From Escherichia phage vB-Eco-KMB36, in sequence record OR525703.1: DNA of 44,710 bases, one strand, 5' to 3'. The notes beneath the pieces are model-generated. The model was not told where the DNA came from. It worked only from the letters and a program-made list of their open reading frames with translations, and made no database searches. The position numbers were made by a program, and so were the translations under genes. Below are positions 5,216 through 41,265 of the stretch, piece by piece (position 1 is the first letter of the stretch; every line of letters starts with the position of its first letter).

Positions 5216-5218
5216 TAA

Positions 5219-5241
5219 GAGGCCCCGAAAGGGGCTTTTTT
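5219..5241 (+). terminator. rho-independent terminator
   Basis: GGCCCCGAAAGGGGC hairpin followed by TTTTTT. Confidence 0.7.
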
Positions 5242-5305
5242 AATGTCTGTGATTATTCCAGTTATTCCGCTCAATTGTAAATGTTGGAATAAACTATTCG
5301 AATAG

Positions 5306-5334
5306 TTGACTTTTCACTAAAAATGTGCTAAGCT
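5306..5334 (+). promoter_or_regulatory. sigma70-like promoter (copy 1 of repeated element)
   Basis: TTGACT, 17-nt spacer, TGcTAAGCT extended -10; CTATTCGAATAG palindrome abuts the -35. Confidence 0.5.
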
Positions 5335-5340
5335 CCACCT

Positions 5341-5541
5341 GAGCTTGTGAAGTATGAACAAGCGACCGCGGCGCGGGCAGGTAACGGAGCGGGACGTAAG
5401 TCCTGAGTGTAGTTACGCTGACGCGTTCGGAAGGGCCATACTCTATTGCTTGTGTAAAAAGTAACTGGTTTACTGAGATTACGCCGTTTCTATGTTTAAA
5501 TGATAAGGACTAGCGCCCCGCTTTATGGCGGGGCTTTACTT
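5341..5541 (+). ncRNA. candidate small RNA of about 200 nt, paralog A
   Basis: No ORF; bounded by the promoter and a GCCCCG/CGGGGC hairpin plus U-tract at 5513..5541; conserved 5-prime hairpin GCTTGT..ACAAGC and box TTCGGAAGGGCCATA shared with the copy at 36997..37210. Confidence 0.35.
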
Positions 5542-5558
5542 ATCGAGAAAGGAGAAAC

Positions 5559-5945
5559 ATGAATCTTAAAGCAACTGTCGTAGCGGGCGCATGTTTCATA
5601 ATCCTGGCTTACGCACACGGCATCTACCAGTATCGCATCGGCTGGAACGAAGGCCGGGCGAATCTCGTTTCGCAGCAACAGCAGAAAGCACAGGCTGAGT
5701 TAGCGAAGAAAACACAACGGCAGCAGCAGGATGAATCAAAGGCCGCGGCAGCTGACAACGAAGGCAAGACGAAATCAGAGGTGATTACCCGTGAAGTCGT
5801 TAAGTACATTAAAACGCCTGGTCGCAGCGTGTGCACTTTCGACGATGCTCGCGTCCTGCTCAAGTCCCGCGCCGTCGCAAACGCCAATTCCATCCCCGGA
5901 TACGACGATGATGCAGCCTCCGTGCAAACTGGCGCCGCCAAGTAG
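5559..5945 (+). CDS. Rz-like i-spanin
   Basis: N-terminal transmembrane segment VVAGACFIILAYA then Q/A/K-rich coiled-coil region; Rz1-like ORF embedded in +1 frame. Confidence 0.55.
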   Translation: MNLKATVVAGACFIILAYAHGIYQYRIGWNEGRANLVSQQQQKAQAELAKKTQRQQQDESKAAAADNEGKTKSEVITREVVKYIKTPGRSVCTFDDARVLLKSRAVANANSIPGYDDDAASVQTGAAK

Positions 5946-7905: not shown

Positions 7906-7930
7906 GAGAGGGACTTCGGTCCCTCTTTTC
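7906..7930 (+). terminator. rho-independent terminator
   Basis: GAGAGGGAC-TTCG-GTCCCTCT hairpin followed by TTTC. Confidence 0.65.
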
Positions 7931-11218: not shown

Positions 11219-12385
11219 ATGGCTACAACTCCTTTTAAGGGCGCGAATACCGCGCAATTCTATGTGGCGGAAGTGACCCCTGGCGTAACACCGACTAACC
11301 CGGTCTGGTCGCCGTTGCGTAACACTGGCGGTGTTCCTGCGGTAACCCGCGATGCGCTGACTTCCAACGAACTCGACGGCAGCAGAGAAACCACATCCAT
11401 CCGCACCGGTAACAAACAGGTTAGCGGGGAGTACGCCATCGAACTTAGCTCACGTAGCCAGGATGATTTCCTTGCGGGTGCTATGACTTCTACGTGGCAG
11501 GACGGGGTAGAGATTACGGGTGCTGAAATTACGGTCGCTCCAGCGGGTAAAACATTCACCCGCGCTGCCGGTAGCTTCATTACTGACGGTGTAGAGGTTG
11601 GCGACCTGATTGCATTCACCGACTTAACCGGCGACAACGCAAAACCGTTTATCGTGACCGCGGTTTCTGCTCTTGTAGTTACGGGTGCGGGTATCCAGCA
11701 CACGCTGACAGCAGAGACTGTAACCACCGACGCTAAAACAGGCGATAAATTGGAAACCGGTAACGCATGTAAGACGTTCTCCATCCTGACATGGTTCAAA
11801 GGACAGTGCGGGAACCCTGACGCGTACATGCTGACCAAAGGCGTGGAAATCTCCGGTTTCACCATTGAACAGGCCGTAAACGCGATGGTGACAGGCAGCT
11901 TCCCGTTCATCGGCCTGAGCCAGGAGATTCTTTCCGGGCCGCCGGAAGGTTCCGACTTCTCTCAGGTCACATTCACTGACGAGCCGTTCTCTTCTGTAGA
12001 TGTGTCTGTGTTCGACGGTTCTACGCCGTTGCGTTGCGATACTCTTACCATAACCAACGACAACGGTGCGTCCGCACAGTTCGAACTAGGAAACAGTAGC
12101 GTTGCGTTCGTAGAACGTGGCCGCGCGGCTAACACATTCTCCATCTCCGGCAAGCTGTACGACATGGCGATGATTCAGAAGTTTATCAACGAGCAGCAGG
12201 TAGAGATTAACTCTATTCTGGCGGGGGTAAACGGGGCTATGTCTTTCAGTTTGAAACGTGCAGAGCTTACGGCGGTTACACCAGAAATATCAGGCCCAGA
12301 GTCAATCACTCAGAGCATAGAAGGACAGTCCACAGGCAATCAATATCAATCTTCTATTGTAATACAGCGTATTAGCTACGCGTAA
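11219..12385 (+). CDS. major tail (tube) protein
   Basis: About 390-aa ORF with AAGAGG RBS, followed by strong terminator; position upstream of chaperone and tape measure. Confidence 0.6.
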   Translation: MATTPFKGANTAQFYVAEVTPGVTPTNPVWSPLRNTGGVPAVTRDALTSNELDGSRETTSIRTGNKQVSGEYAIELSSRSQDDFLAGAMTSTWQDGVEITGAEITVAPAGKTFTRAAGSFITDGVEVGDLIAFTDLTGDNAKPFIVTAVSALVVTGAGIQHTLTAETVTTDAKTGDKLETGNACKTFSILTWFKGQCGNPDAYMLTKGVEISGFTIEQAVNAMVTGSFPFIGLSQEILSGPPEGSDFSQVTFTDEPFSSVDVSVFDGSTPLRCDTLTITNDNGASAQFELGNSSVAFVERGRAANTFSISGKLYDMAMIQKFINEQQVEINSILAGVNGAMSFSLKRAELTAVTPEISGPESITQSIEGQSTGNQYQSSIVIQRISYA

Positions 12386-12390
12386 GGAAA

Positions 12391-12416
12391 AGGCCCCGAA
12401 AGGGGCCTTACTATTT
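12391..12416. terminator. terminator hairpin shared by convergent genes
   Basis: AGGCCCCGAAAGGGGCCT hairpin between the major tail gene end and the minus-strand HNH gene end. Confidence 0.6.
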
Positions 12417-12899
12417 ACCGTGGTTCTCGTGGAACCCTAAATCTCTTTCAGCAACTCTCCTCGCGGCAACTGCATCTAGTAGCGTTTTAAAGCATCCGAT
12501 GTGTGTTTTTACGTTATTGTTGAATATCTGTGCGTACCACAACCTTTCTTTCGCGTTCCAGTAAACCCCGGTTACTCCTGATTTATTATTACGCTGTTTT
12601 GACATATTTTTATGGTTTTCCGCATTGGACTTTTTAGCTAAGTTAAGCGGTCTATTGTTTATTCGGTTATGGTCTAGATGGTCTATTTGATCTGACGAGG
12701 TTAGCTTATCGTTAGGATTGTTTAAGTCCCAAGCTATACGGTGCGCCGCGTGCCATTTACCTCTGAAAAATATCCTTCTATATCCGTCTCGCTGTACAGT
12801 ACCTGCCTCCTCTCCAGCCTTAGCCCTCCCGGAACGTGTTACTCTGTTAAATATCCTTCCTGAAATTAAGTCGTATATGAAAAATTCATTCCAGTCCAT
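12411..12899 (-). CDS. HNH homing endonuclease with AP2 DNA-binding domain
   Basis: IDHLDHNRINNRPLNL HNH core and AP2-like SGVTGVYWNAKERLWYAQI; start taken at the ATG 6 nt after AGGAG. Confidence 0.75.
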   Translation of the reverse strand: MDWNEFFIYDLISGRIFNRVTRSGRAKAGEEAGTVQRDGYRRIFFRGKWHAAHRIAWDLNNPNDKLTSSDQIDHLDHNRINNRPLNLAKKSNAENHKNMSKQRNNKSGVTGVYWNAKERLWYAQIFNNNVKTHIGCFKTLLDAVAARRVAERDLGFHENHGK

Positions 12900-12918
12900 A
12901 ATCATCTCCTGTTGCGAT

Positions 12919-12943
12919 AAGGCCCCGAAAGGGGCCTTTTTCT
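12919..12943 (+). terminator. terminator-like hairpin
   Basis: AAGGCCCCGAAAGGGGCC followed by TTTTTCT on the plus strand. Confidence 0.5.
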
Positions 12944-13173
12944 CACTCATCAATATTACTCCTGTACTCCCGTAACTTCTCCAGACTTTCAATTGCTTCA
13001 GCTAAGTCTGTTCCGGTGTCCTTGTGGCCACGCAAGCCCATACACAACAGCTTCTTCAATGCGTGTTGCAACGCCGGGTCGCGGATGTCGAAGGCACGCA
13101 GCACATCGTAAACGTCTACCGTCATAGTGCTGCCGTGGGTATTTGTCATTGTGCGGTTGTATTTATTTGTCAC
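12943..13173 (-). CDS. hypothetical protein
   Basis: 76-aa ORF, coupled to neighbours. Confidence 0.4.
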   Translation of the reverse strand: MTNKYNRTMTNTHGSTMTVDVYDVLRAFDIRDPALQHALKKLLCMGLRGHKDTGTDLAEAIESLEKLREYRSNIDE

Positions 13174-14721: not shown

Positions 14722-14762
14722 GGTGTAGCTCCTGTTTGAGTTAACATTGTTGGTGTAAGTGA

Positions 14763-14791
14763 ATAGTATCCTATTATGTTGGGGTGTGCAA
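14763..14791 (-). promoter_or_regulatory. sigma70-like promoter with AATAG-N4-CTATT palindrome
   Basis: Minus strand reads TTGCAC, 17 nt, TACTAT; near-identical to the plus-strand promoter at 37252..37280. Confidence 0.5.
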
Positions 14792-14898
14792 GTAATGTGT
14801 TAGAATTATTTTGCGCCTAGTGTCGCACACGAAAAGCGGGTGGTTCCCGTCTGGCGCATTTTCCTTAACCTGTAACCTCTTAACCAAAGGATTAAAGA

Positions 14899-24281: not shown

Positions 24282-24288
24282 ATAAACA

Positions 24289-24312
24289 AGGCCCCTAACG
24301 GGGCCTTTTTCT
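24289..24312 (+). terminator. rho-independent terminator
   Basis: AGGCCCCTAACGGGGCCT followed by TTTTCT. Confidence 0.7.
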
Positions 24313-24449
24313 TACTCTTCTGATAACTTCTCCAGTACAAACGCCAGTTGCGCATTAGCGGCATCTCTTTGCTGGCGTAGTCGCAGAACCTCTTCTTCCA
24401 GTTCCTTGATACGTTTTTGCAATGCCGGAATCGGGGCTATGATGTTCAT
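24312..24449 (-). CDS. hypothetical small coiled-coil protein
   Basis: 45-codon ORF MNIIAPIPALQKRIKELEEEVLRLRQQ...; last gene of the minus-strand block. Confidence 0.3.
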   Translation of the reverse strand: MNIIAPIPALQKRIKELEEEVLRLRQQRDAANAQLAFVLEKLSEE

Positions 24450-26286: not shown

Positions 26287-26574
26287 TTAACTATAATAGC
26301 TCGCTATTAGGTCGTCAACCTGTTTAAACGAACCAACGACAAAAACATTTGCACCACGTTTACGCATCCGCTCGTGCTCTCGTAACTGGTGCGGGTCCGG
26401 CTTCGTGTTTTCGTCTTTCTTAACCTCGACGAACCAGATGATGCCACCAGGGAGAATTACCAGCAGGTCAGGAGCTCCCACTCTATTTTCGTACGACAAT
26501 TTGCGTACAAGGCCCCCCATGGCCTCGAATCGCTCTTTTGCGTATTTCTGTACGCGGCCCTCTTTAGTCGCCAT
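26287..26574 (-). CDS. VRR-NUC-like nuclease
   Basis: PDLLVILPGG...WFVEVK pattern. Confidence 0.55.
   Translation of the reverse strand: MATKEGRVQKYAKERFEAMGGLVRKLSYENRVGAPDLLVILPGGIIWFVEVKKDENTKPDPHQLREHERMRKRGANVFVVGSFKQVDDLIASYYS
26290..26318 (-). promoter_or_regulatory. sigma70-like promoter with AATAG-N4-CTATT palindrome
   Basis: Minus strand reads TTGACG, 17 nt, TATAGT; palindrome at 26295..26308. Confidence 0.5.
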
Positions 26575-27070
26575 GGTTGCAAAACTCTCCGTGCAGTTTT
26601 GCCCTAAATTCTCTCAGCGATTCCTCTGCTTCATTTAGGTTCTGGAAATACCCAATCTGGTAGCGTGTACCTTTAAAAGCAACTCGAGCGCACCAAGCAT
26701 TATGAGGCTTACTCCAGTTAACCCCTTTCACGCCGCTGGTGTTCGTAACTGGGGTCTTGCGGTTATGGTTCTGTTGAAATTCATCCGCAAGCCGTAGGTT
26801 ACAAATCCGGTTATCGTCCCGTATGCCGTTAATATGGTCTATTTGCTTAGTTGGCATTTCTCCGTATACCCACCACCACGCCAGCCTGTGTGCGCGGTAA
26901 TACACCCTATTCCATCCTAACAATATGTACCCTTTACGGTCCTTGTAGGTAACAACATCTCCGGGTTTCGCGGTCTGGCATCTGTGCTTGACCCATTCAA
27001 ATATCCCGGTATCCGGGTCGTATGACAGAAAATTTTTTATGTCGTCACTTGGTGCTTTCATAATACGCAC
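26564..27070 (-). CDS. HNH homing endonuclease with AP2 domain
   Basis: QIDHINGIRDDNRICNL HNH core, AP2-like SGVKGVNWSKPHNAWCARV. Confidence 0.7.
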   Translation of the reverse strand: MRIMKAPSDDIKNFLSYDPDTGIFEWVKHRCQTAKPGDVVTYKDRKGYILLGWNRVYYRAHRLAWWWVYGEMPTKQIDHINGIRDDNRICNLRLADEFQQNHNRKTPVTNTSGVKGVNWSKPHNAWCARVAFKGTRYQIGYFQNLNEAEESLREFRAKLHGEFCNHGD

Positions 27071-30200: not shown

Positions 30201-30360
30201 GTTCGGAAGTGCAATCCCATACTTCTACAGGACCGTCATCAACGGCATATGTACAAATTATAACCTCGGTCGTTGGATGCTCCGCGTACGCGTACGACCC
30301 AACTTTCTTTAAGTCCGCTCCAGAGAATGTCTCAGTATCTAGGTACAATAAACTAGTCAT
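27265..30360 (-). CDS. DNA polymerase I (family A) interrupted by an intein
   Basis: Exo motif YLDTETFS, polymerase motif A VADYSNVEGRG, C-terminal VHDELV; 299-aa insertion between RQIGKA and CELGLGYEGG. Confidence 0.8.
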   Translation of the reverse strand: MTSLLYLDTETFSGADLKKVGSYAYAEHPTTEVIICTYAVDDGPVEVWDCTSEPVMPISLRVALRNVMRGRMKIVGHNFLMFDRLIMKHCWGFDIPVSNTIDTMIWAFRHALPGSLDALCEVLGVSADNAKDKRGKALIQRFSKPTPKNYKIRRYTAETHPDEWALFIKYAVSDITAMREVFHKLPRWGNSEFEDRVLELDQLINDRGFKVDVALAEAAIEAVEKHKAQLQEEAQRKYGGSLTGKDFLPILRELAPAHRIHNAQKSTLNDLLADDDLPDDARAIIEMRLGAASTASTKYNPLLLGRSSDDRRRGCLQYGGAKRTLRWAGKGFQPQNLARGYYHDDELDKGISALLKGRAHRRFDVAKLTASTVRSCIIPEVGHKFVVADYSNVEGRGLAWLAGEETALDTFRAGLDIYCVTAGKMFGMDPDYIKKERKDLRQIGKACLHRHTQVLTDGGFKDIMAVTSTDKVWSGEKWVNTKGAHLMGWKPVINVDGVLMTEDHKILAHSWKQAKQLASNRYMMGLALERGMDAWLSCASYQNDKAKDNYSSNVIAERCRGGSIMTTSERVKPLNATAAPLKQQKNIVNSISATKTQCRMMRTERDYSTGCPRRSREQQAPGIRVIKTMGQEASRYSTSGGLIKGLFLDMFKLWKAGMTRTSKWIESTQTVTTNLETFGLSAVLKTAETDGKYPSFNESMMQPLPALLNLSGKLTYCEPVYDLIDVEDGNRFLIASGSGFLVAHNCELGLGYEGGVGAFVQFAKNLGLDLIEMAKTMDGTFPDHIWSATARGYEWARIQEAKRPPHPGEKDDRPSYILDKKVWRTCDAIKRMWRESHPETVAFWRDLKEGILAAVRNPGREFWAGAHLRRNGERAIRIWRTVEFDSSGREVPGWWLCMELPSGRILSYPGIGVSVTKETDEDGRVNTNVRIKYQGENQLTRQWTTLYTHGGKACENIVQALCRDLLAYAMINVEGGGYPIVLSVHDELVCETPDAPEYTVAELEKLMCSLPEWAEGFPLVAEGAELKRYAK
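28126..29022 (-). mobile_element. intein (Hint domain, 299 aa) in DNA polymerase
   Basis: CLHRHTQVLTDGGFKDI, TEDHKILAHS, VYDLIDVEDGNRFLIASGSGFLVAHN then Cys+1; boundaries checked on nucleotides. Confidence 0.65.
28187..28930 (-). CDS. HNH endonuclease gene overlapping the intein in the +1 frame
   Basis: Zinc ribbon CDCG...CNRC and HNH core DRIDTDGNYEPGNIRFVSRSENCRNRR; own GGAG RBS and ATG; frame offset from polymerase verified on nucleotides. Confidence 0.55.
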   Translation of the reverse strand: MGEYKRRAPYGVETGNKCGRGANDRRPQNLGAFLEAGKATRFKQIYDGPRPGERYGRLVILRELPKRQGQRQLLVQCDCGEMPGRVYYDNVRAGKTTQCNRCALEATKKYRKQYFCYEDAMPDDAHRTRLLNRLSAAITRTTSPRDKGYKNYGARGITVFDQWRTDKRSFLRYVQTLEGWDDPNLEMDRIDTDGNYEPGNIRFVSRSENCRNRRQIPELQRKYDAAVARIAELEREINLLRAGVRPD

Positions 30361-30826
30361 GGCAATAAAATTCCTTGTGCAGTTTTTCTCTTAATTTCTT
30401 TACGGCGCTTTCTGCTTCTTCAAGAGTTCCGTAGCTACCAGCGTTATAACTTTTGTAGTTAAAATGTACACGCCCGTAAAATCGGTTGCCGTTTTTAACT
30501 ACTCCCTTAACTCCGGTTCTAGCTCCCTTATTTTTAGCGTTTCGCACATTATCAGCGGTTGTTGCTTTCCTTAGGTTAGAAATCCTATTGTCTAACCTGT
30601 CACGGTTTATATGGTCAAGAGGCCCCTCGGGCCATTCACCGTACTCGAAAAACCAAGCAAGCCTGTGGGCCATGTAATATCTACCCATATAAGGTATGCG
30701 CCAGTATCCACTACTATTGATGCACCCAGCGATGTCTCCGGGTTTTCCTCGTCTGTACGTAGGTTGTATCCATGTGAATATTCCGGTTTCTCGGTTATAA
30801 CTAAGAAAATCTTTTATATGTTCCAT
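30353..30826 (-). CDS. HNH homing endonuclease with AP2 domain
   Basis: LDHINRDRLDNRISNL HNH core, AP2-like TGVKGVVKNGNRFYGRV; start at ATG 30826 after GGAG; stop overlaps polymerase start. Confidence 0.7.
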   Translation of the reverse strand: MEHIKDFLSYNRETGIFTWIQPTYRRGKPGDIAGCINSSGYWRIPYMGRYYMAHRLAWFFEYGEWPEGPLDHINRDRLDNRISNLRKATTADNVRNAKNKGARTGVKGVVKNGNRFYGRVHFNYKSYNAGSYGTLEEAESAVKKLREKLHKEFYCHD

Positions 30827-30834
30827 TCTGACTC

Positions 30835-30859
30835 CGGTAAAAAGGCCCAATGAAGGGCC
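30835..30859 (-). terminator. rho-independent terminator
   Basis: On minus strand GGCCCTTCATTGGGCC followed by TTTTT, immediately upstream of the HNH RBS. Confidence 0.6.
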
Positions 30860-31507: not shown

Positions 31508-31562
31508 TTCTCGATTCCTCAGTTTTCAGTTTACTCCGGGAGCTGCCCGGCCAGTGATTAGA

Positions 31563-31591
31563 ACTATAATAGCTAACTATTCAGGTGTCAA
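31563..31591 (-). promoter_or_regulatory. sigma70-like promoter with AATAG-N4-CTATT palindrome
   Basis: Minus strand reads TTGACA, 17 nt, TATAGT; palindrome at 31568..31581. Confidence 0.55.
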
Positions 31592-33650: not shown

Positions 33651-33681
33651 TTGTTTCTCTCCTCTCGTTTGGTATGGGCTA

Positions 33682-33710
33682 ACTATAATAGCGAACTATT
33701 CACATGTCAA
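33682..33710 (-). promoter_or_regulatory. sigma70-like promoter with AATAG-N4-CTATT palindrome
   Basis: Minus strand reads TTGACA, 17 nt, TATAGT; palindrome at 33687..33700. Confidence 0.55.
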
Positions 33711-33744
33711 TGGGCTTTTCTAAAATAATTAATATGGTACTATT
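33699..33744 (+). promoter_or_regulatory. candidate divergent promoter and second operator-like site for the XRE-family gene
   Basis: TTCACA, 16 nt, TAAAAT; degenerate palindrome AATAT-GGTA-CTATT at 33731..33744. Confidence 0.35.
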
Positions 33745-33774
33745 CACATATCAACTGACTAAGGAGTAATTGAC

Positions 33775-36462: not shown

Positions 36463-36675
36463 TTATTTACAACCAGAAAACCACGTGTGCTCGGAATCAT
36501 AGAAGCGGCATTTACTTAACACGTCTACCGGCATCTTAATAATTCGCGTCGGTTCCGACAAATGATTAGGTTTACATATTTCTGCATAGAATCCGCTGTC
36601 GGTAATTTCTGACGCAAACTTAAACCAGTATTTAACTTTACCGTTTTCAAAGTAACAACCCATACGCCCAATCAT
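36463..36675 (-). CDS. hypothetical protein
   Basis: 70-aa ORF. Confidence 0.4.
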   Translation of the reverse strand: MIGRMGCYFENGKVKYWFKFASEITDSGFYAEICKPNHLSEPTRIIKMPVDVLSKCRFYDSEHTWFSGCK

Positions 36676-36854
36676 TTCACATTCTCCTTAATCCACGCTT
36701 CAACTTTATTACGGTCGAATGTACCAGGTAAACGGCGACCCATAACTTTAATACAACAGTCGGGGAATTTGCCGCTGCGTAACCAGTTATTAATTGTCTG
36801 ACGTGTCACCCCAATACGCTCGGCTACTTCATTCTGTGTCATGTACTGTTGCAT
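36672..36854 (-). CDS. AlpA-like HTH DNA-binding protein
   Basis: MTQNEVAERIGVTRQTINNWLRSGKFP; ATG 36854 with AGGAG RBS. Confidence 0.55.
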   Translation of the reverse strand: MQQYMTQNEVAERIGVTRQTINNWLRSGKFPDCCIKVMGRRLPGTFDRNKVEAWIKENVK

Positions 36855-36885
36855 TTTTATATCTCCTGTTTGTTTGGTGAAACCG

Positions 36886-36914
36886 AGTATAGGATAGCGG
36901 GGATGTAAAAGCAA
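36886..36914 (-). promoter_or_regulatory. candidate sigma70-like promoter of the early operon
   Basis: Minus strand reads TTGCTT, 17 nt, TATACT. Confidence 0.4.
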
Positions 36915-36961
36915 CCAAAACTGAACGCAAAGTTACCAAAATACAAAAGATGCTACTGGTA

Positions 36962-36990
36962 TTGACTTTTCACTAAAAATGTGCTAAGCT
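36962..36990 (+). promoter_or_regulatory. sigma70-like promoter (copy 2 of repeated element)
   Basis: TTGACT, 17 nt, TGcTAAGCT; identical to the promoter at 5306..5334. Confidence 0.5.
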
Positions 36991-36996
36991 CGTCCT

Positions 36997-37210
36997 GAGC
37001 TTGTGAAGTATGAACAAGCGACCGCGGTGCGCGGCAGGCGAAACGAGCACGTCTAGACGTGTGGAGTGAGGCTCGCTGGCGCATTCGGAAGGGCCATAGT
37101 CTATTGTAATTCCCGCCTAGGTATCTAAGTTACTGATTTGCCGTAGGTTAGAACCGCAAGCTCACTCACTCACTCTTGGTGCCTTCGGCACCACGTTCGT
37201 TTCGTTTCGC
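36997..37210 (+). ncRNA. candidate small RNA of about 210 nt, paralog B
   Basis: No ORF; shares promoter, 5-prime hairpin and TTCGGAAGGGCCATA box with 5341..5541; ends at GGTGCC-TTC-GGCACC hairpin plus U-rich tract. Confidence 0.35.
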
Positions 37211-37251
37211 TCGCTAAACAAAAGAATCACAACGGCAACGTAACTATTCTC

Positions 37252-37280
37252 TTGCACACCCCAATATAATAGGATACTAT
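37252..37280 (+). promoter_or_regulatory. sigma70-like promoter with AATAG-N4-CTATT palindrome
   Basis: TTGCAC, 17 nt, TACTAT; palindrome at 37268..37281. Confidence 0.5.
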
Positions 37281-37305
37281 TCACTTATCGAAACGAGACA
37301 GAGGA

Positions 37306-37506
37306 ATGATGGTTATGTTTAAGAAGGGCCAGTTGGTTAAATGCGCCGACGGTGAACACGGCATAATTGAATTAAAATCTAATGTATTTCCCGGTGAGTA
37401 CGTAGTGACCGTGCAAAAGGTGAGAGGGGTAAATTCACAAATATACGTAGAAGAGGAGAACTTAAAACTCATTGGCAACAATTTTAAATTCAAAGGGGCG
37501 AAGTGA
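37306..37506 (+). CDS. hypothetical protein
   Basis: 66-aa ORF downstream of promoter; start may be ATG 37309 or 37315. Confidence 0.45.
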   Translation: MMVMFKKGQLVKCADGEHGIIELKSNVFPGEYVVTVQKVRGVNSQIYVEEENLKLIGNNFKFKGAK

Positions 37507-41006: not shown

Positions 41007-41258
41007 TTGGATAAATTTACTGAAACAGTGACGGGGTGGCTTCTCGCTGCCGCGCTAGCCGGAGGGGTTATCGGACTACGGCAACATAAGTCTGTTATTT
41101 CTGGCCCCATCGACGGCTTCTGCTTTATCGCAACTGGCTTCACCTGCGCCGTATTCGGCGCACCTCTAGCGGCTCAATGGTTCGGCATTACCGGGGAGCG
41201 TGAAATCGCTCGGCGCACCTCTAGCGGCTCAATGGTTCGGCATTACCGGGGAGCGTGA
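41007..41258 (+). CDS. holin-like membrane protein, truncated by a 55-bp tandem duplication
   Basis: Two hydrophobic helices then frameshifted tail RRTSSGSMVRHYRGA; removing one repeat copy restores a 102-aa three-helix protein ending at 41370. Confidence 0.5.
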   Translation: MDKFTETVTGWLLAAALAGGVIGLRQHKSVISGPIDGFCFIATGFTCAVFGAPLAAQWFGITGEREIARRTSSGSMVRHYRGA

Positions 41259-41265
41259 AATCGCT
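41156..41265. repeat. perfect 55-bp tandem duplication
   Basis: CGGCGCACCTCTAGCGGCTCAATGGTTCGGCATTACCGGGGAGCGTGAAATCGCT occurs twice back to back. Confidence 0.85.

Follow-up and report, generated by a model that had tools for sequence, protein, structure and literature searches.

In the genome of Escherichia phage vB-Eco-KMB36 (OR525703.1), a Kagunavirus (Guernseyvirinae) whose 44,710 nt constitute the window analysed here, a gene-free gap in a divergent control region adjoining the helicase-primase gene carries a promoter-like sequence and a segment that recurs ahead of the capsid operon, raising the question of whether this locus encodes a discrete small RNA or the 5´ leader of the genes downstream. 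The initial annotation proposed the former, a terminated short transcript, and all the sequence features it named were found where it had placed them. The gap, put there at roughly 390 bp, is 451 bp long, extending from a minus-strand ATG at 36854 to a plus-strand ATG at 37306. The features of the locus (copy B, 36962-37110) and of the element that it repeats (copy A, 5306-5452) are collected in Table 1.

Table 1. Features of the copy B and copy A loci, in window coordinates.
Feature	Position	Strand	Sequence or parts	Basis or remark
Candidate leftward promoter	36886..36914	-	TTGCTT-17-TATACT	Read from sequence
Copy B promoter	36962..36990	+	TTGACT (36962-36967), 17-nt spacer, TGc (36982-36984), TAAGCT (36985-36990)	Sequence-inferred
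-10-like direct repeat	36996..37001	+	TGAGCT	Read from sequence; overlaps predicted start (G 36997)
Copy B structured RNA core	36997..37110	+	~112 model positions	Covariance model R1
P1 hairpin	36999..37019	+	GCUUGU-GAAGUAUGA-ACAAGC	Begins 2 nt from predicted 5´ end
Invariant segment	37021..37027	+	ACCGCGG	Apparently unpaired; same in all five types
Long irregular stem-loop P2-P5	37028..37083	+		Pairing kept across types
P6 hairpin and following segment	37084..37106	+	UUCGG-AAGGG-CCAUA (37084-37098), then GUCUAUUG	Box exact in both copies
B-locus-specific 3´ domain	37107..37177	+	UAAGUUACUGAUUUGCCGU (37126-37144), (CUCA)n run (37161-37175)	Comparison with copy A
Hairpin and tail, weak candidate 3´ end	37178..37212	+	GGUGCC-UUC-GGCACC (37178-37192), tail ACGUUCGUUUCGUUUCGCUCG	Loose terminator scan
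Proximal promoter-like motif	37251..37287	+	CTTGCACACCCCAATATAATAGGATACTATTCACTTA	19 nt upstream of ATG 37306
Copy A (universal copy)	5306..5558	+		Promoter to spanin ATG
Copy A parts	5306-5514	+	Promoter 5306-5334, predicted start 5341, core 5341-5452, 3´ domain 5453-5514	Sequence and model
Copy A hairpin to ATG	5515-5559	+	GC hairpin 5515-5534, UUUACUUAU, ribosome-binding site, Rz-like spanin ATG 5559	

As had been proposed, copy B and the element at 5306 are true paralogues. The 29-nt promoter is identical in the two copies, with two matches in the window compared with none in 100 shuffles. The copies further share a 70-nt segment (96% identity) and a 33-nt box (91% identity), which make up repeat families D4 and D7, and the sequence TTCGGAAGGGCCATA occurs exactly in both, at 5426 and 37084. 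A covariance model built from relatives matched copy B with 96.5 bits (E about 4e-24) and copy A with 134 bits. Back to back with copy B, the candidate leftward promoter lies 25 nt upstream of a helix-turn-helix gene (ATG 36854), though a consensus scan missed it. On the other side, the sequence taken initially for a promoter at 37252 is not a canonical sigma-70 promoter, since its TTGCAC and TATAAT are only 7 nt apart, but it does belong to a repeated promoter-like family: the motif is an inverted copy of 14756-14792, which lies in the same orientation upstream of a minus-strand ATG at 14722, and it is a member of repeat families D3 and D5.

An extended -10 sigma-70 promoter is plausible for copy B, as sequence comparison with relatives suggests: TG is invariant and is followed by C, A or G, the form in type D, one of five sequence types (A-E), being TGnTACGCT. 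Transcription is predicted to start ~7 nt downstream of the -10 element, at the G at ~36997. A 5´ hairpin, AAGCTC-gtcct-GAGCTT, had been drawn at this position, but it overlaps the -10 hexamer and half of it is upstream of the predicted start, so that its 5´ arm would be untranscribed. We consider it better read as the -10 element followed by a direct -10-like repeat, which appears inverted because AGCT is self-complementary; in type D the repeat is unambiguously direct (TACGCT-AAC-TACGCT). The second hexamer is found 9-11 bp downstream of the -10 element in all types and co-varies with it, TGAGCT accompanying TAAGCT in types A, B, C and E and an exact TACGCT accompanying TACGCT in type D, and the spacer between the two hexamers varies freely among relatives. 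For sigma-70 recognition the A at position 2 of the -10 element matters most, and TGAGCT lacks it. A -10-like element inside putL of phage HK022 has been proposed to pause RNA polymerase, aiding RNA folding (PMC9378689).

The core that follows consists of a 5´ hairpin (P1), the invariant ACCGCGG, a long irregular stem-loop (P2-P5), the UUCGG-AAGGG-CCAUA hairpin (P6) and CUAUUG. All five types keep this fold through compensatory changes; both sides have changed in 12 of the 28 core pairs, and 88% of pair cells are paired in the model-fitted alignment compared with 31-46% when partners are slid. The proposal that copy B encodes a structured RNA is thus borne out by helices kept through compensatory changes. 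P1 is paired in all 24 sequences with letters there (types A, B, C and E, type D being gapped), and in these four types 0-2 nt separate it from the predicted transcript start; it is 7 bp long in type E (GCUUGUG/CGCAAGC), and type D has only ACGCU-UUC-AGCGU, of 3-5 bp depending on the exact start. Within the long stem-loop, P2 (UGCGC/GCGCA), P3 (CAG/CUG), a GCGAAA bulge and P4 (CGAG/CUCG) lead to P5 (CACGU-CUAG-ACGUG, 37048-37061), where the DNA contains the palindrome CACGTCTAGACGTG, and the 3´ internal loop is UGGAGUGAGG, bearing a conserved GAGUG(U)A; the CGAGC/GCTCG stem of the initial annotation is likewise present. Across 34 sequences the closing pair of P2 (37028-37083) is U-A in 17, C-G in 14 and A-U in three, with no non-pairs, and P4 and P5 differ in sequence while pairing in every type. 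Mismatches in P6 become pairs in independent lineages, namely UUCGG/CCGAG in type D, UUUGGG/CCCAAA in RP180 and UUUCGG/CCAAAG in type E. The invariant unpaired motifs of the core are ACCGCGG, GAGUG(U)A, GGAAGGG and CUAUUG. ACCGCGG can instead pair with UUCGG at 37084-37088, an arrangement in which RNAfold extends P2 in competition with P6 and on which no covariation decides.

Several other readings of the element were rejected. RNAalifold proposed, with apparent A-versus-D covariation, that the 5´ end pairs with the region between the hairpin and the ribosome-binding site, but the duplex energies did not improve on those of shuffles (p about 0.14 each), and type E alters P1 while leaving the partner unchanged. 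Pairing of the P1 loop with CAUACU, seen in the type A minimum-energy fold, was discarded, the partner position being freely C, G or U. We also considered a coding function: a short ORF starts at an AUG within the loop of P1, with 36 codons in copy A but 19 in copy B. This ORF is not conserved, since the frames differ between the copies after an indel and types D and E lack the AUG, and where records annotate "hypothetical proteins" across the element, these are likely spurious.

The distribution of the element separates the two copies. In approximately 449 of ~461 related Guernseyvirinae genomes (about 97%) a single copy precedes the operon of spanin, scaffold and capsid genes, so the element is conserved among relatives and the objection of poor conservation, foreseen in the initial annotation, does not apply. 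Copy A directly follows a strong terminator closing the terminase-portal-decoration genes, and it is 97-99% identical to its counterpart in Salmonella phage SETP13, compared with 71-86% for the flanking genes. To judge from these identities, copy A appears to be under strong selection, more conserved than the surrounding proteins. Beyond these phages, the covariance model gave no match in Pantoea phage AH01 or Pseudomonas phage PMBT14, and when viral, genome and metagenome collections were scanned with gapped patterns, most matches were chance ones in GC-rich DNA, the real ones being Kagunavirus-like contigs only. Copy B is confined to a subset of Kagunavirus genomes (at least 39 records) and is a mosaic, its promoter and core being joined to a different 3´ part. 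The 3´ domain of copy B is not homologous to that of copy A except for an ACUGA...GCCGU island, which is also present in the B-locus of SETP13, a locus without the core. A TAAGTWACTKA palindrome, considered as an operator, is enriched in the SETP13 B-locus (nine occurrences compared with 2.4 expected) and is not enriched in the window. The B locus thus received the promoter and core only, without the 3´ domain or hairpin of copy A, and the fold has been kept despite many substitutions.

We compared the 3´ hairpins using our own re-implementation of a terminator discriminant d; on this scale the terminator at 5221 scores +46, the copy A hairpin about +17, type D about -3 and copy B about -40. 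The GGTGCC-TTC-GGCACC hairpin of copy B had been described as carrying a U-rich tail. Its GTTTC-repeat tail is present, but the hairpin is followed by ACGUUCGUUUCG rather than a U-run and scores as a non-terminator (tail score 0.6-0.9, d -40 to -49). Other B-locus variants have a different hairpin, likewise without a U-tract (d -32 to -49 for the B-locus overall), and type D, found in 269 genomes, has a hairpin that lacks a U-tract and is a borderline terminator. The GC hairpin between the copy A core and the ribosome-binding site shows compensatory changes (GCCCCGC/GCGGGGC, GCCCGGC/GCCGGGC and GCCCGAC/GUCGGGC), and its type A form scores as a terminator. Only ~25 nt separate this hairpin from the spanin ribosome-binding site and ATG, leaving no space for another promoter, and at least some of the copy A RNA must therefore continue into the capsid operon as its 5´ leader. 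A further terminator-like hairpin is located downstream of the capsid gene (7906-7927).

Our best reading, put forward tentatively, is that the element is a portable cis-acting leader that promotes read-through in an antitermination-like manner. On this reading, copy B is a recombinant duplicate of a module, promoter plus leader, that is specific to Guernseyvirinae phages. Host sigma-70 polymerase would initiate at ~36997 from the extended -10 promoter TTGACT-17-TGnTAAGCT, within the -10-like repeat, which may cause a promoter-proximal pause, and the first ~112 nt would form P1, P2-P5 and P6. The folded nascent RNA would then act in cis on elongation or termination by the polymerase that made it, either unaided, in the manner of HK022 put, or by serving to load a factor of phage or host origin, as lambda nut and qut do. 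In both cases polymerase would pass the GC hairpin and the terminators beyond it and enter the downstream operon, comprising the spanin, scaffold, capsid and tail genes for copy A and the rightward small-gene and lysis operon for copy B. That the promoter and core alone were copied, with the fold kept, suggests that function travels with the promoter, independent of any particular downstream sequence. Several considerations argue against this leader. The second hexamer of type A lacks the A at position 2; the type D and B-locus hairpins lack U-tracts, so there may be little termination to overcome; no Q-like or N-like protein turned up among the 30 ORFs scanned, and neither leader contains a boxA; a factor-independent antiterminator gives no obvious temporal control of late genes; and the B locus has its own promoter-like motif, which may be enough to transcribe the rightward operon without the distal start.

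Next in probability, though unlikely, is a passive 5´ leader that leaves the polymerase unaffected and protects a very abundant late mRNA from 5´-end-dependent decay or keeps Rho from loading on a long untranslated leader. In types A, B, C and E, P1 lies next to the predicted transcript start, and the element stands before the operon that is expressed most highly; both are consistent with such a role, and a protective leader would work before any operon, fitting the mosaic copy B. However, a terminal hairpin suffices for protection, so that the 112-nt core, its invariant unpaired motifs and the 97-99% identity across genera are left unexplained, and the terminal hairpin of type D is just 3-5 bp.

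The discrete small RNA of the initial annotation, a terminated trans-acting transcript of ~200 nt that pairs with phage or host mRNAs or sequesters a protein, with the P4-P5 differences between copies A and B setting specificity, is in our view distinctly unlikely. What stands of that proposal is a paralogous, structured and conserved element; the terminated short transcript is not supported, the copy B hairpin being a poor terminator and copy A being, in part, necessarily a leader. The copy A hairpin does score as an intrinsic terminator, the sigma-70-like promoter and hairpin-capped 5´ end resemble those of many stable RNAs, the downstream B-locus genes have a separate proximal promoter-like motif, and the variable apical hairpin could determine specificity. 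Yet copy B and the B-locus variants lack U-tracts, type D has only a borderline terminator, the capsid operon, with no other promoter, needs read-through of copy A at least part of the time, and the duplication did not bring the 3´ end of the supposed gene. Nor were targets apparent: phage transcripts contained no site of at least 12 nt complementary to the RNA except the paralogue itself, and the promoter-plus-core query (36962-37110) gave no blastn match on either strand of 5,426 E. coli genomes, although pairing through short seeds, or sponging of a protein, may still occur. A single match to this query in an E. coli "plasmid" was discounted, the record being a Kagunavirus-like genome. There is thus no evidence for a trans target, and its absence counts toward the leader reading. 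Given the weak copy B hairpin and the lack of room for another promoter at copy A, a discrete small RNA is no more likely than a long 5´ UTR.

A sensing attenuator, in which the core serves as an aptamer that recognises a metabolite or a protein of the phage or host, and binding sets whether the hairpin stops transcription or translation, seems quite improbable. Its architecture would be familiar, with a promoter, a multi-helix domain combining conserved unpaired nucleotides and variable stems, a linker, a GC hairpin and a ribosome-binding site, and the extended P2 (ACCGCGG with UUCGG) and P6 are mutually exclusive, suggesting a possible switch. Against this, copy B has the core but lacks the expression platform of copy A, core and hairpin showed no alternative pairing that is conserved, the RNAalifold long-range proposal being no better than shuffles, and the element occurs in one phage subfamily only. 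No Rfam family corresponds to it either: Rfam 15 gave no matches over the whole window at gathering thresholds, and with E up to 10 over 36850-37350 returned just two chance-level matches (16 bits compared with thresholds of 50-59), both outside the core; tRNA and tmRNA scans found none. An origin-priming or origin-activating transcript, forming an R-loop or activating a nearby origin as do T4 oriF/oriG or ColE1 RNA II, is very improbable. Copy B does lie in a divergent control region beside the helicase-primase gene and is followed by a simple-repeat (CTCA)n tract, and the genome carries two copies. Most genomes, however, have copy A alone, set between structural genes and running straight into the ribosome-binding site of the spanin gene, with neither iterons nor an AT-rich unwinding element beside it, and the presence of G-U pairs together with compensatory changes favours a folded RNA over a hybrid with DNA.

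Jerseyvirus and Kagunavirus phages are among the commonest isolates for Salmonella and E. coli therapy and biocontrol, and a 112-nt fold heading the capsid operon in about 97% of genomes is an obvious candidate for the point at which late transcription, driven by host polymerase alone, is controlled. In the literature searched, we found no description of this RNA, and for late-transcription control in these phages only predicted promoters and terminators. If the element modifies polymerase, it would enlarge the very small set of RNA-based antiterminators and provide a genetic part that can be moved between contexts; as a merely stabilising leader it would still be a new, well-supported RNA motif, to be annotated instead of spurious small ORFs.

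Among known systems, the 5´ UTR of ompA is an example of an mRNA stabiliser formed by a 5´-terminal stem-loop, and the element likewise places a hairpin within 0-2 nt of where a highly expressed mRNA is predicted to begin, but it is far larger, and its sequence far more constrained, than such stabilisers need. The proposed leader resembles lambda nutL/nutR with N as portable RNA sites that follow two promoters and make polymerase terminator-resistant, and a small phage protein partner would supply timing. In contrast to nut, neither leader contains the boxA consensus (YGCUCUUWA with at most one mismatch, absent from 5341-5558 and 36997-37305), a boxB-like 15-nt hairpin with a GNRA-like loop is not conserved across types, and no N-like protein was found among the 30 ORFs scanned (20 with PHROGs, 10 with Pfam). 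The lambda late leader, PR'-qut-tR', gives a 194-nt "6S" transcript and works with the Q antiterminator. Copy A parallels it in having a sigma-70 promoter, a ~200-nt leader and a terminator-like hairpin immediately followed by lysis (Rz/Rz1) and morphogenesis genes, and the -10-like repeat, an exact copy of the -10 element only in type D, lies at ~-1 to +5, where lambda has a pause-inducing element. It differs in that the same 30 ORFs included no Q-family protein, and the conserved feature here is RNA structure, whereas no conserved RNA fold is known for the lambda late leader; moreover, of the hairpins at the leader end, only that of copy A (d about +17) resembles an intrinsic terminator, those of type D (about -3) and copy B (about -40) being weak.

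There is also a close resemblance to putL and putR of HK022, which are also structured RNAs just downstream of sigma-70 promoters at operon heads, with terminators within the operon, and which start within a few nucleotides of the transcript 5´ end, are present as two related copies per genome (here in the Kagunavirus subset only), have a -10-like element in the early transcribed region (PMC9378689) and, as here, have no apparent antiterminator protein. The put RNA is ~70 nt long with two stem-loops, a V shape and a stem I triplex (PMC9378689), and this description sets it apart from the core, which is ~112 nt and comprises P1, a 56-nt P2-P5 stem-loop and P6. Acting in cis and needing no protein factor, put RNA binds the zinc-binding domain of the RNA polymerase beta-prime subunit and so suppresses pausing and termination, an activity that the core may share. 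In contrast to HK022, the phages considered here are virulent siphoviruses with mostly one copy, at late rather than early operons. A bolder form of the proposal is unlikely: that the core, although folded in a way unrelated to put, is an antiterminator RNA that binds polymerase and needs no protein, driving the late operon of many virulent Salmonella and E. coli siphoviruses and copied to a second operon in some Kagunaviruses. Were this to prove true, it would to our knowledge be the first put-type RNA fold described outside HK022-like lambdoid phages and a compact, portable antitermination part.

The interval 36900-37300 matches 230 phage records, all Guernseyvirinae (Escherichia, Salmonella or Raoultella phages), with the best matches in Kagunavirus at 88-93% identity. 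The element under study, copy B, is located in a 451-bp divergent control region, and its paralog, copy A, separates the decoration and spanin genes. All sequence features listed for copy B in the initial annotation are present in the window. The promoter described as shared corresponds to a 29-bp string, TTGACTTTTCACTAAAAATGTGCTAAGCT, found exactly twice in the window versus 0 times in 100 shuffles, and the shared segments are confirmed by direct-repeat families D4 (70 nt, 96%) and D7 (33 nt, 91%), which join both loci. Upon pairwise alignment, the copies are near-identical from the -35 to CUAUUG, the interior block excepted, and largely unrelated beyond it. The observation holds and is well beyond chance. 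We read the proposed 5´ hairpin, AAGCTC-N5-GAGCTT, differently, since its 5´ arm is the -10 hexamer and half would be outside the RNA. What the sequence types (A-E) conserve is a second, directly repeated copy of the -10 hexamer placed 9-11 bp downstream of the first: TAAGCT...TGAGCT for types A, B, C and E, and exactly TACGCT-AAC-TACGCT for type D. The repeat appears inverted because AGCT is self-complementary; the supposed loop is the spacer between the hexamers and varies freely.

Features of the window and of the copy B RNA
Feature	Position	Strand	Remark
Terminase, portal, head morphogenesis and Hoc-like decoration genes	last ends 5215	+	order as in annotated relatives
Terminator after decoration gene	5221		
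Copy A promoter; core	5306-5334; 5341-5452		
Copy A hairpin	5515-5534		
Rz-like spanin, scaffold, major capsid and tail genes	5559 to ~24.3 kb	+	order as in annotated relatives
Replication genes	~24.6 to 36.85 kb	-	order as in annotated relatives
Helix-turn-helix gene (60 aa)	36672-36854	-	last of replication block
Copy B promoter	36962-36990		
P1 hairpin	36999-37019	+	GCUUGU-GAAGUAUGA-ACAAGC; RNA 5´ start if transcription begins at 36997
Invariant ACCGCGG	37021-37027	+	
P2-P5, long irregular stem-loop	37028-37083	+	P2 UGCGC/GCGCA; P3 CAG/CUG, then GCGAAA bulge; P4 CGAG/CUCG; P5 CACGU-CUAG-ACGUG; GAGUG(U)A in 3´ internal loop
P6 hairpin	37084-37098	+	UUCGG-AAGGG-CCAUA, then CUAUUG
Copy B (CTCA)n run	37161-37175		3´ domain
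Copy B hairpin	37178-37192		followed by ACGUUCGUUUCG
CTTGCACACCCCAAYATAATAGGATACTATTCACTTA motif	14756-14792, 37251-37287		mutually inverted
Small genes, then holins and endolysin	from 37306	+	order as in annotated relatives
AATAG-N4-CTATT-sharing promoters	26289-26318, 31562-31591, 33681-33710, 33730-33754		
HNH_3 homing-endonuclease ORFs	26564-27070, 30353-30850	-	paralogous pair
Holin-gene duplication	41155-41264		
GGCCCCGAAAGGGGCC hairpins	2754-2791, 5217-5254, 12388-12425, 12917-12954, 24288-24320		ends of gene blocks

We also noted a pair of homing-endonuclease ORFs among the replication genes, and an exact 55-bp tandem duplication in the first holin gene that Raoultella phage RP180 lacks. 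The 55 bp are not divisible by 3, so the duplication shifts the frame and splits the holin ORF, which reflects either genuine disruption or an assembly error. The terminator hairpins GGCCCCGAAAGGGGCC are near-identical, and those between convergent genes may act bidirectionally.

Transcription of copy B is predicted to start ~7 nt past the -10, at G 36997, giving an RNA whose core would fold into six helices (P1-P6). Helix sequences change between types, yet pairing holds in each: P4 is GUAAC/GUUAC in type A, GGAAC/GUUCC in type E, GAAAC/GUGUC in type C and CGAG/CUCG in type B; each type has its own distinct P5 hairpin; both P6 mismatches turn into pairs in type D, type E and RP180; and the P2 closing pair is C-G, U-A or A-U, with zero exceptions in 28 or 34 sequences. 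In a model-fitted alignment, standard pairs occupy 88% of pair cells (31-46% with partners slid 1-3 columns), both sides change at 12 of 28 pairs, and the covariation score is 0.26 versus ≤0.08 in slid controls, figures that overstate independence because the alignment was fitted to the structure and the sequences represent only five lineages. A plain MAFFT alignment agrees in direction (83% vs 31-41%). G-U pairs are confined to the plus strand, in favor of a plus-sense RNA. Folds of single sequences beat shuffles only modestly (z -2.0 and -2.6); in these, ACCGCGG can pair with UUCGG, precluding P6, and as both segments are invariant, covariation favors neither arrangement. Rfam 15 gave no match in the window at gathering thresholds and, at permissive settings, two chance-level matches near the core, none inside it; the window has no tRNA or tmRNA genes. 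The searchable papers on these phages give predicted promoters and terminators only and do not describe the element. The RNA motif is well supported and confined to Jerseyvirus, Kagunavirus and relatives, and we found no published description.

Copies collected in three ways (IMG/VR exact 15-mer, neighboring spanin protein, GenBank phages) fall into the five types. Type A occupies the spanin locus in Kagunavirus and some Jerseyvirus, and type D, a divergent version, the same locus in most Salmonella Jerseyviruses (269 records, one per genome). Types B and E occur at the control-region locus only, and type C at both (the spanin locus in genome L013, the control-region locus in L044 and L053). 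The control-region copy was found only in Kagunavirus-group records, at least 39 of which match across at least 80% of 36900-37300. The copy B query matched 180 records which, with the type D records, give ~449 genomes carrying the element, compared to 461 records with a capsid protein at least 80% identical, bearing out conservation in related genomes. A covariance model of 28 sequences picked up all five types (48-135 bits) and nothing in two outgroups, Pseudomonas phage PMBT14 and Pantoea phage AH01, the latter an unclassified Guernseyvirinae member with 88% capsid identity. Upstream of its spanin gene, AH01 has a GC-rich, hairpin-rich leader of ~300 nt (12140-12484), scoring no match with the model, which also ends in a GC hairpin and then CACUUAUACG ahead of the ribosome-binding site; this is either an analog or a homolog diverged past recognition. 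The promoter-plus-core query (36962-37110) had no match among 5,426 complete E. coli genomes, and true matches in pattern scans of viral, bacterial-genome and metagenome collections were Kagunavirus-like contigs only. An E. coli "plasmid" of 44,086 bp (CP088689.1) matches the query at two places and so probably represents a Kagunavirus genome. The type B element on a 6.2-kb contig in a "Bacillota bacterium" MAG (JAEWLW010000073.1) suggests that phage DNA was mis-binned.

Relative to Salmonella phage SETP13, a Jerseyvirus, the copy A promoter and core are 97% identical and its 3´ domain 99%, above the neighboring head-morphogenesis (71%), spanin (73%), scaffold (83%), capsid (85%) and decoration (86%) genes, which would reflect either very strong constraint or recent module exchange. 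Exchange does occur, since types A and D are both found in Jerseyvirus. In the SETP13 control region, the distal promoter differs (TTGACA-17-TAAGTT), the leader has no core, and only the downstream islands TAAGTTACTGA..TGCCG, CCCAATATAATAG..TACTATT and AACGAGA are common to it and the window. Copy B is thus a mosaic: the late-operon promoter plus core displaced the 5´ portion of an older rightward leader, and later diverged in P4-P5 with the fold retained. The copy B leader contains one instance of a near-palindrome, TAAGTWACTKA (37126-37136), and the SETP13 control region three (36040, 36137 and 36207, spaced 70-97 bp), with nine strand-matches versus 2.4 expected across the SETP13 genome; a phage DNA-binding protein may use it as an operator or roadblock site.

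The rightward promoter proposed at 37252 has a spacer of 7 nt. The site lies in a 37-bp motif, CTTGCACACCCCAAYATAATAGGATACTATTCACTTA, both copies of which precede a start codon in the same orientation (37306, plus strand; 14722, minus strand), with 35-45 nt from -10 to ATG. The copy at 37251-37287, a relative of the palindromic TGAATAGT...CTATTAT family (repeat families D3 and D5) that others found with PHIRE (PMC9825357), is probably an unusual type of promoter or operator. The AATAG-N4-CTATT palindromic core of the motif is also found in consensus TTGACA-17-TATAGT promoters before minus-strand replication genes; together these look like a promoter family with a common operator.

Copy A is the sole candidate promoter for the spanin-scaffold-capsid operon and lies directly after a strong terminator, with the spanin ribosome-binding site 25 nt on, so its predicted RNA has to lead the main late mRNA each time the operon is expressed. 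GenBank X87092, a fragment of Salmonella phage MB78, also has a complete, unannotated type D element (835-1060), which lies upstream of the scaffold gene, p26/p28; MB78 is therefore a Jerseyvirus-like phage. The fragment also carries ORFs p21 and p11.5, and p26/p28 contains a frameshift site. The p26/p28 products are reportedly late proteins.

The portable unit is promoter plus core, which heads two unrelated downstream sequences. This portability favors action on the transcribing polymerase or the whole transcript, and our first-ranked, though tentative, reading is a cis-acting leader promoting read-through (antitermination). It might act by a factor-independent mechanism, like the HK022 antiterminator RNA put, or alternatively by factor loading, like the lambda nut or qut sites. 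Against read-through, terminators in type D and copy B are weak, the A at position 2 is missing from TGAGCT, we found no boxA and, among 20 ORFs scanned with PHROGs and 10 with Pfam, no Q-like or N-like protein, the rightward operon has its own proximal promoter-like motif, and both the start and read-through are predicted from sequence and a modeled fold. A leader that stabilizes the mRNA is doubtful, given that core size and sequence constraint exceed the needs of a protective 5´ hairpin. We consider a discrete trans-acting or sponge RNA unlikely on the basis of a d'Aubenton-Carafa-type discriminant (re-implemented formula, values approximate), which gives d of ~-40 for the copy B hairpin and -32 for the type E hairpin at the same locus, although copy A scores +17; type D scores -3 and the terminator after the decoration gene +46. 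By these scores, copy A could plausibly give a terminated short RNA, type D only doubtfully, and copy B probably not. Small RNA is an only partly correct label for the element, and copy B is better read as a leader. The copy number of the (CTCA)n run preceding the copy B hairpin varies among relatives, with one extra unit in the MAG contig, and the comparable place in some type E loci holds a (GTGA)n run. A sensing attenuator with a matched expression platform is improbable given the portability of promoter plus core, and we give very little credence to an origin transcript.

We infer that the element is a promoter-proximal regulatory leader RNA of phages, a known kind of RNA to which this motif would be an addition. 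The -10-like repeat at its start site resembles the sigma-dependent pausing arrangement of lambdoid late promoters. A second parallel is the -10-like element of HK022 putL, which has been proposed to aid putL folding (PMC9378689).
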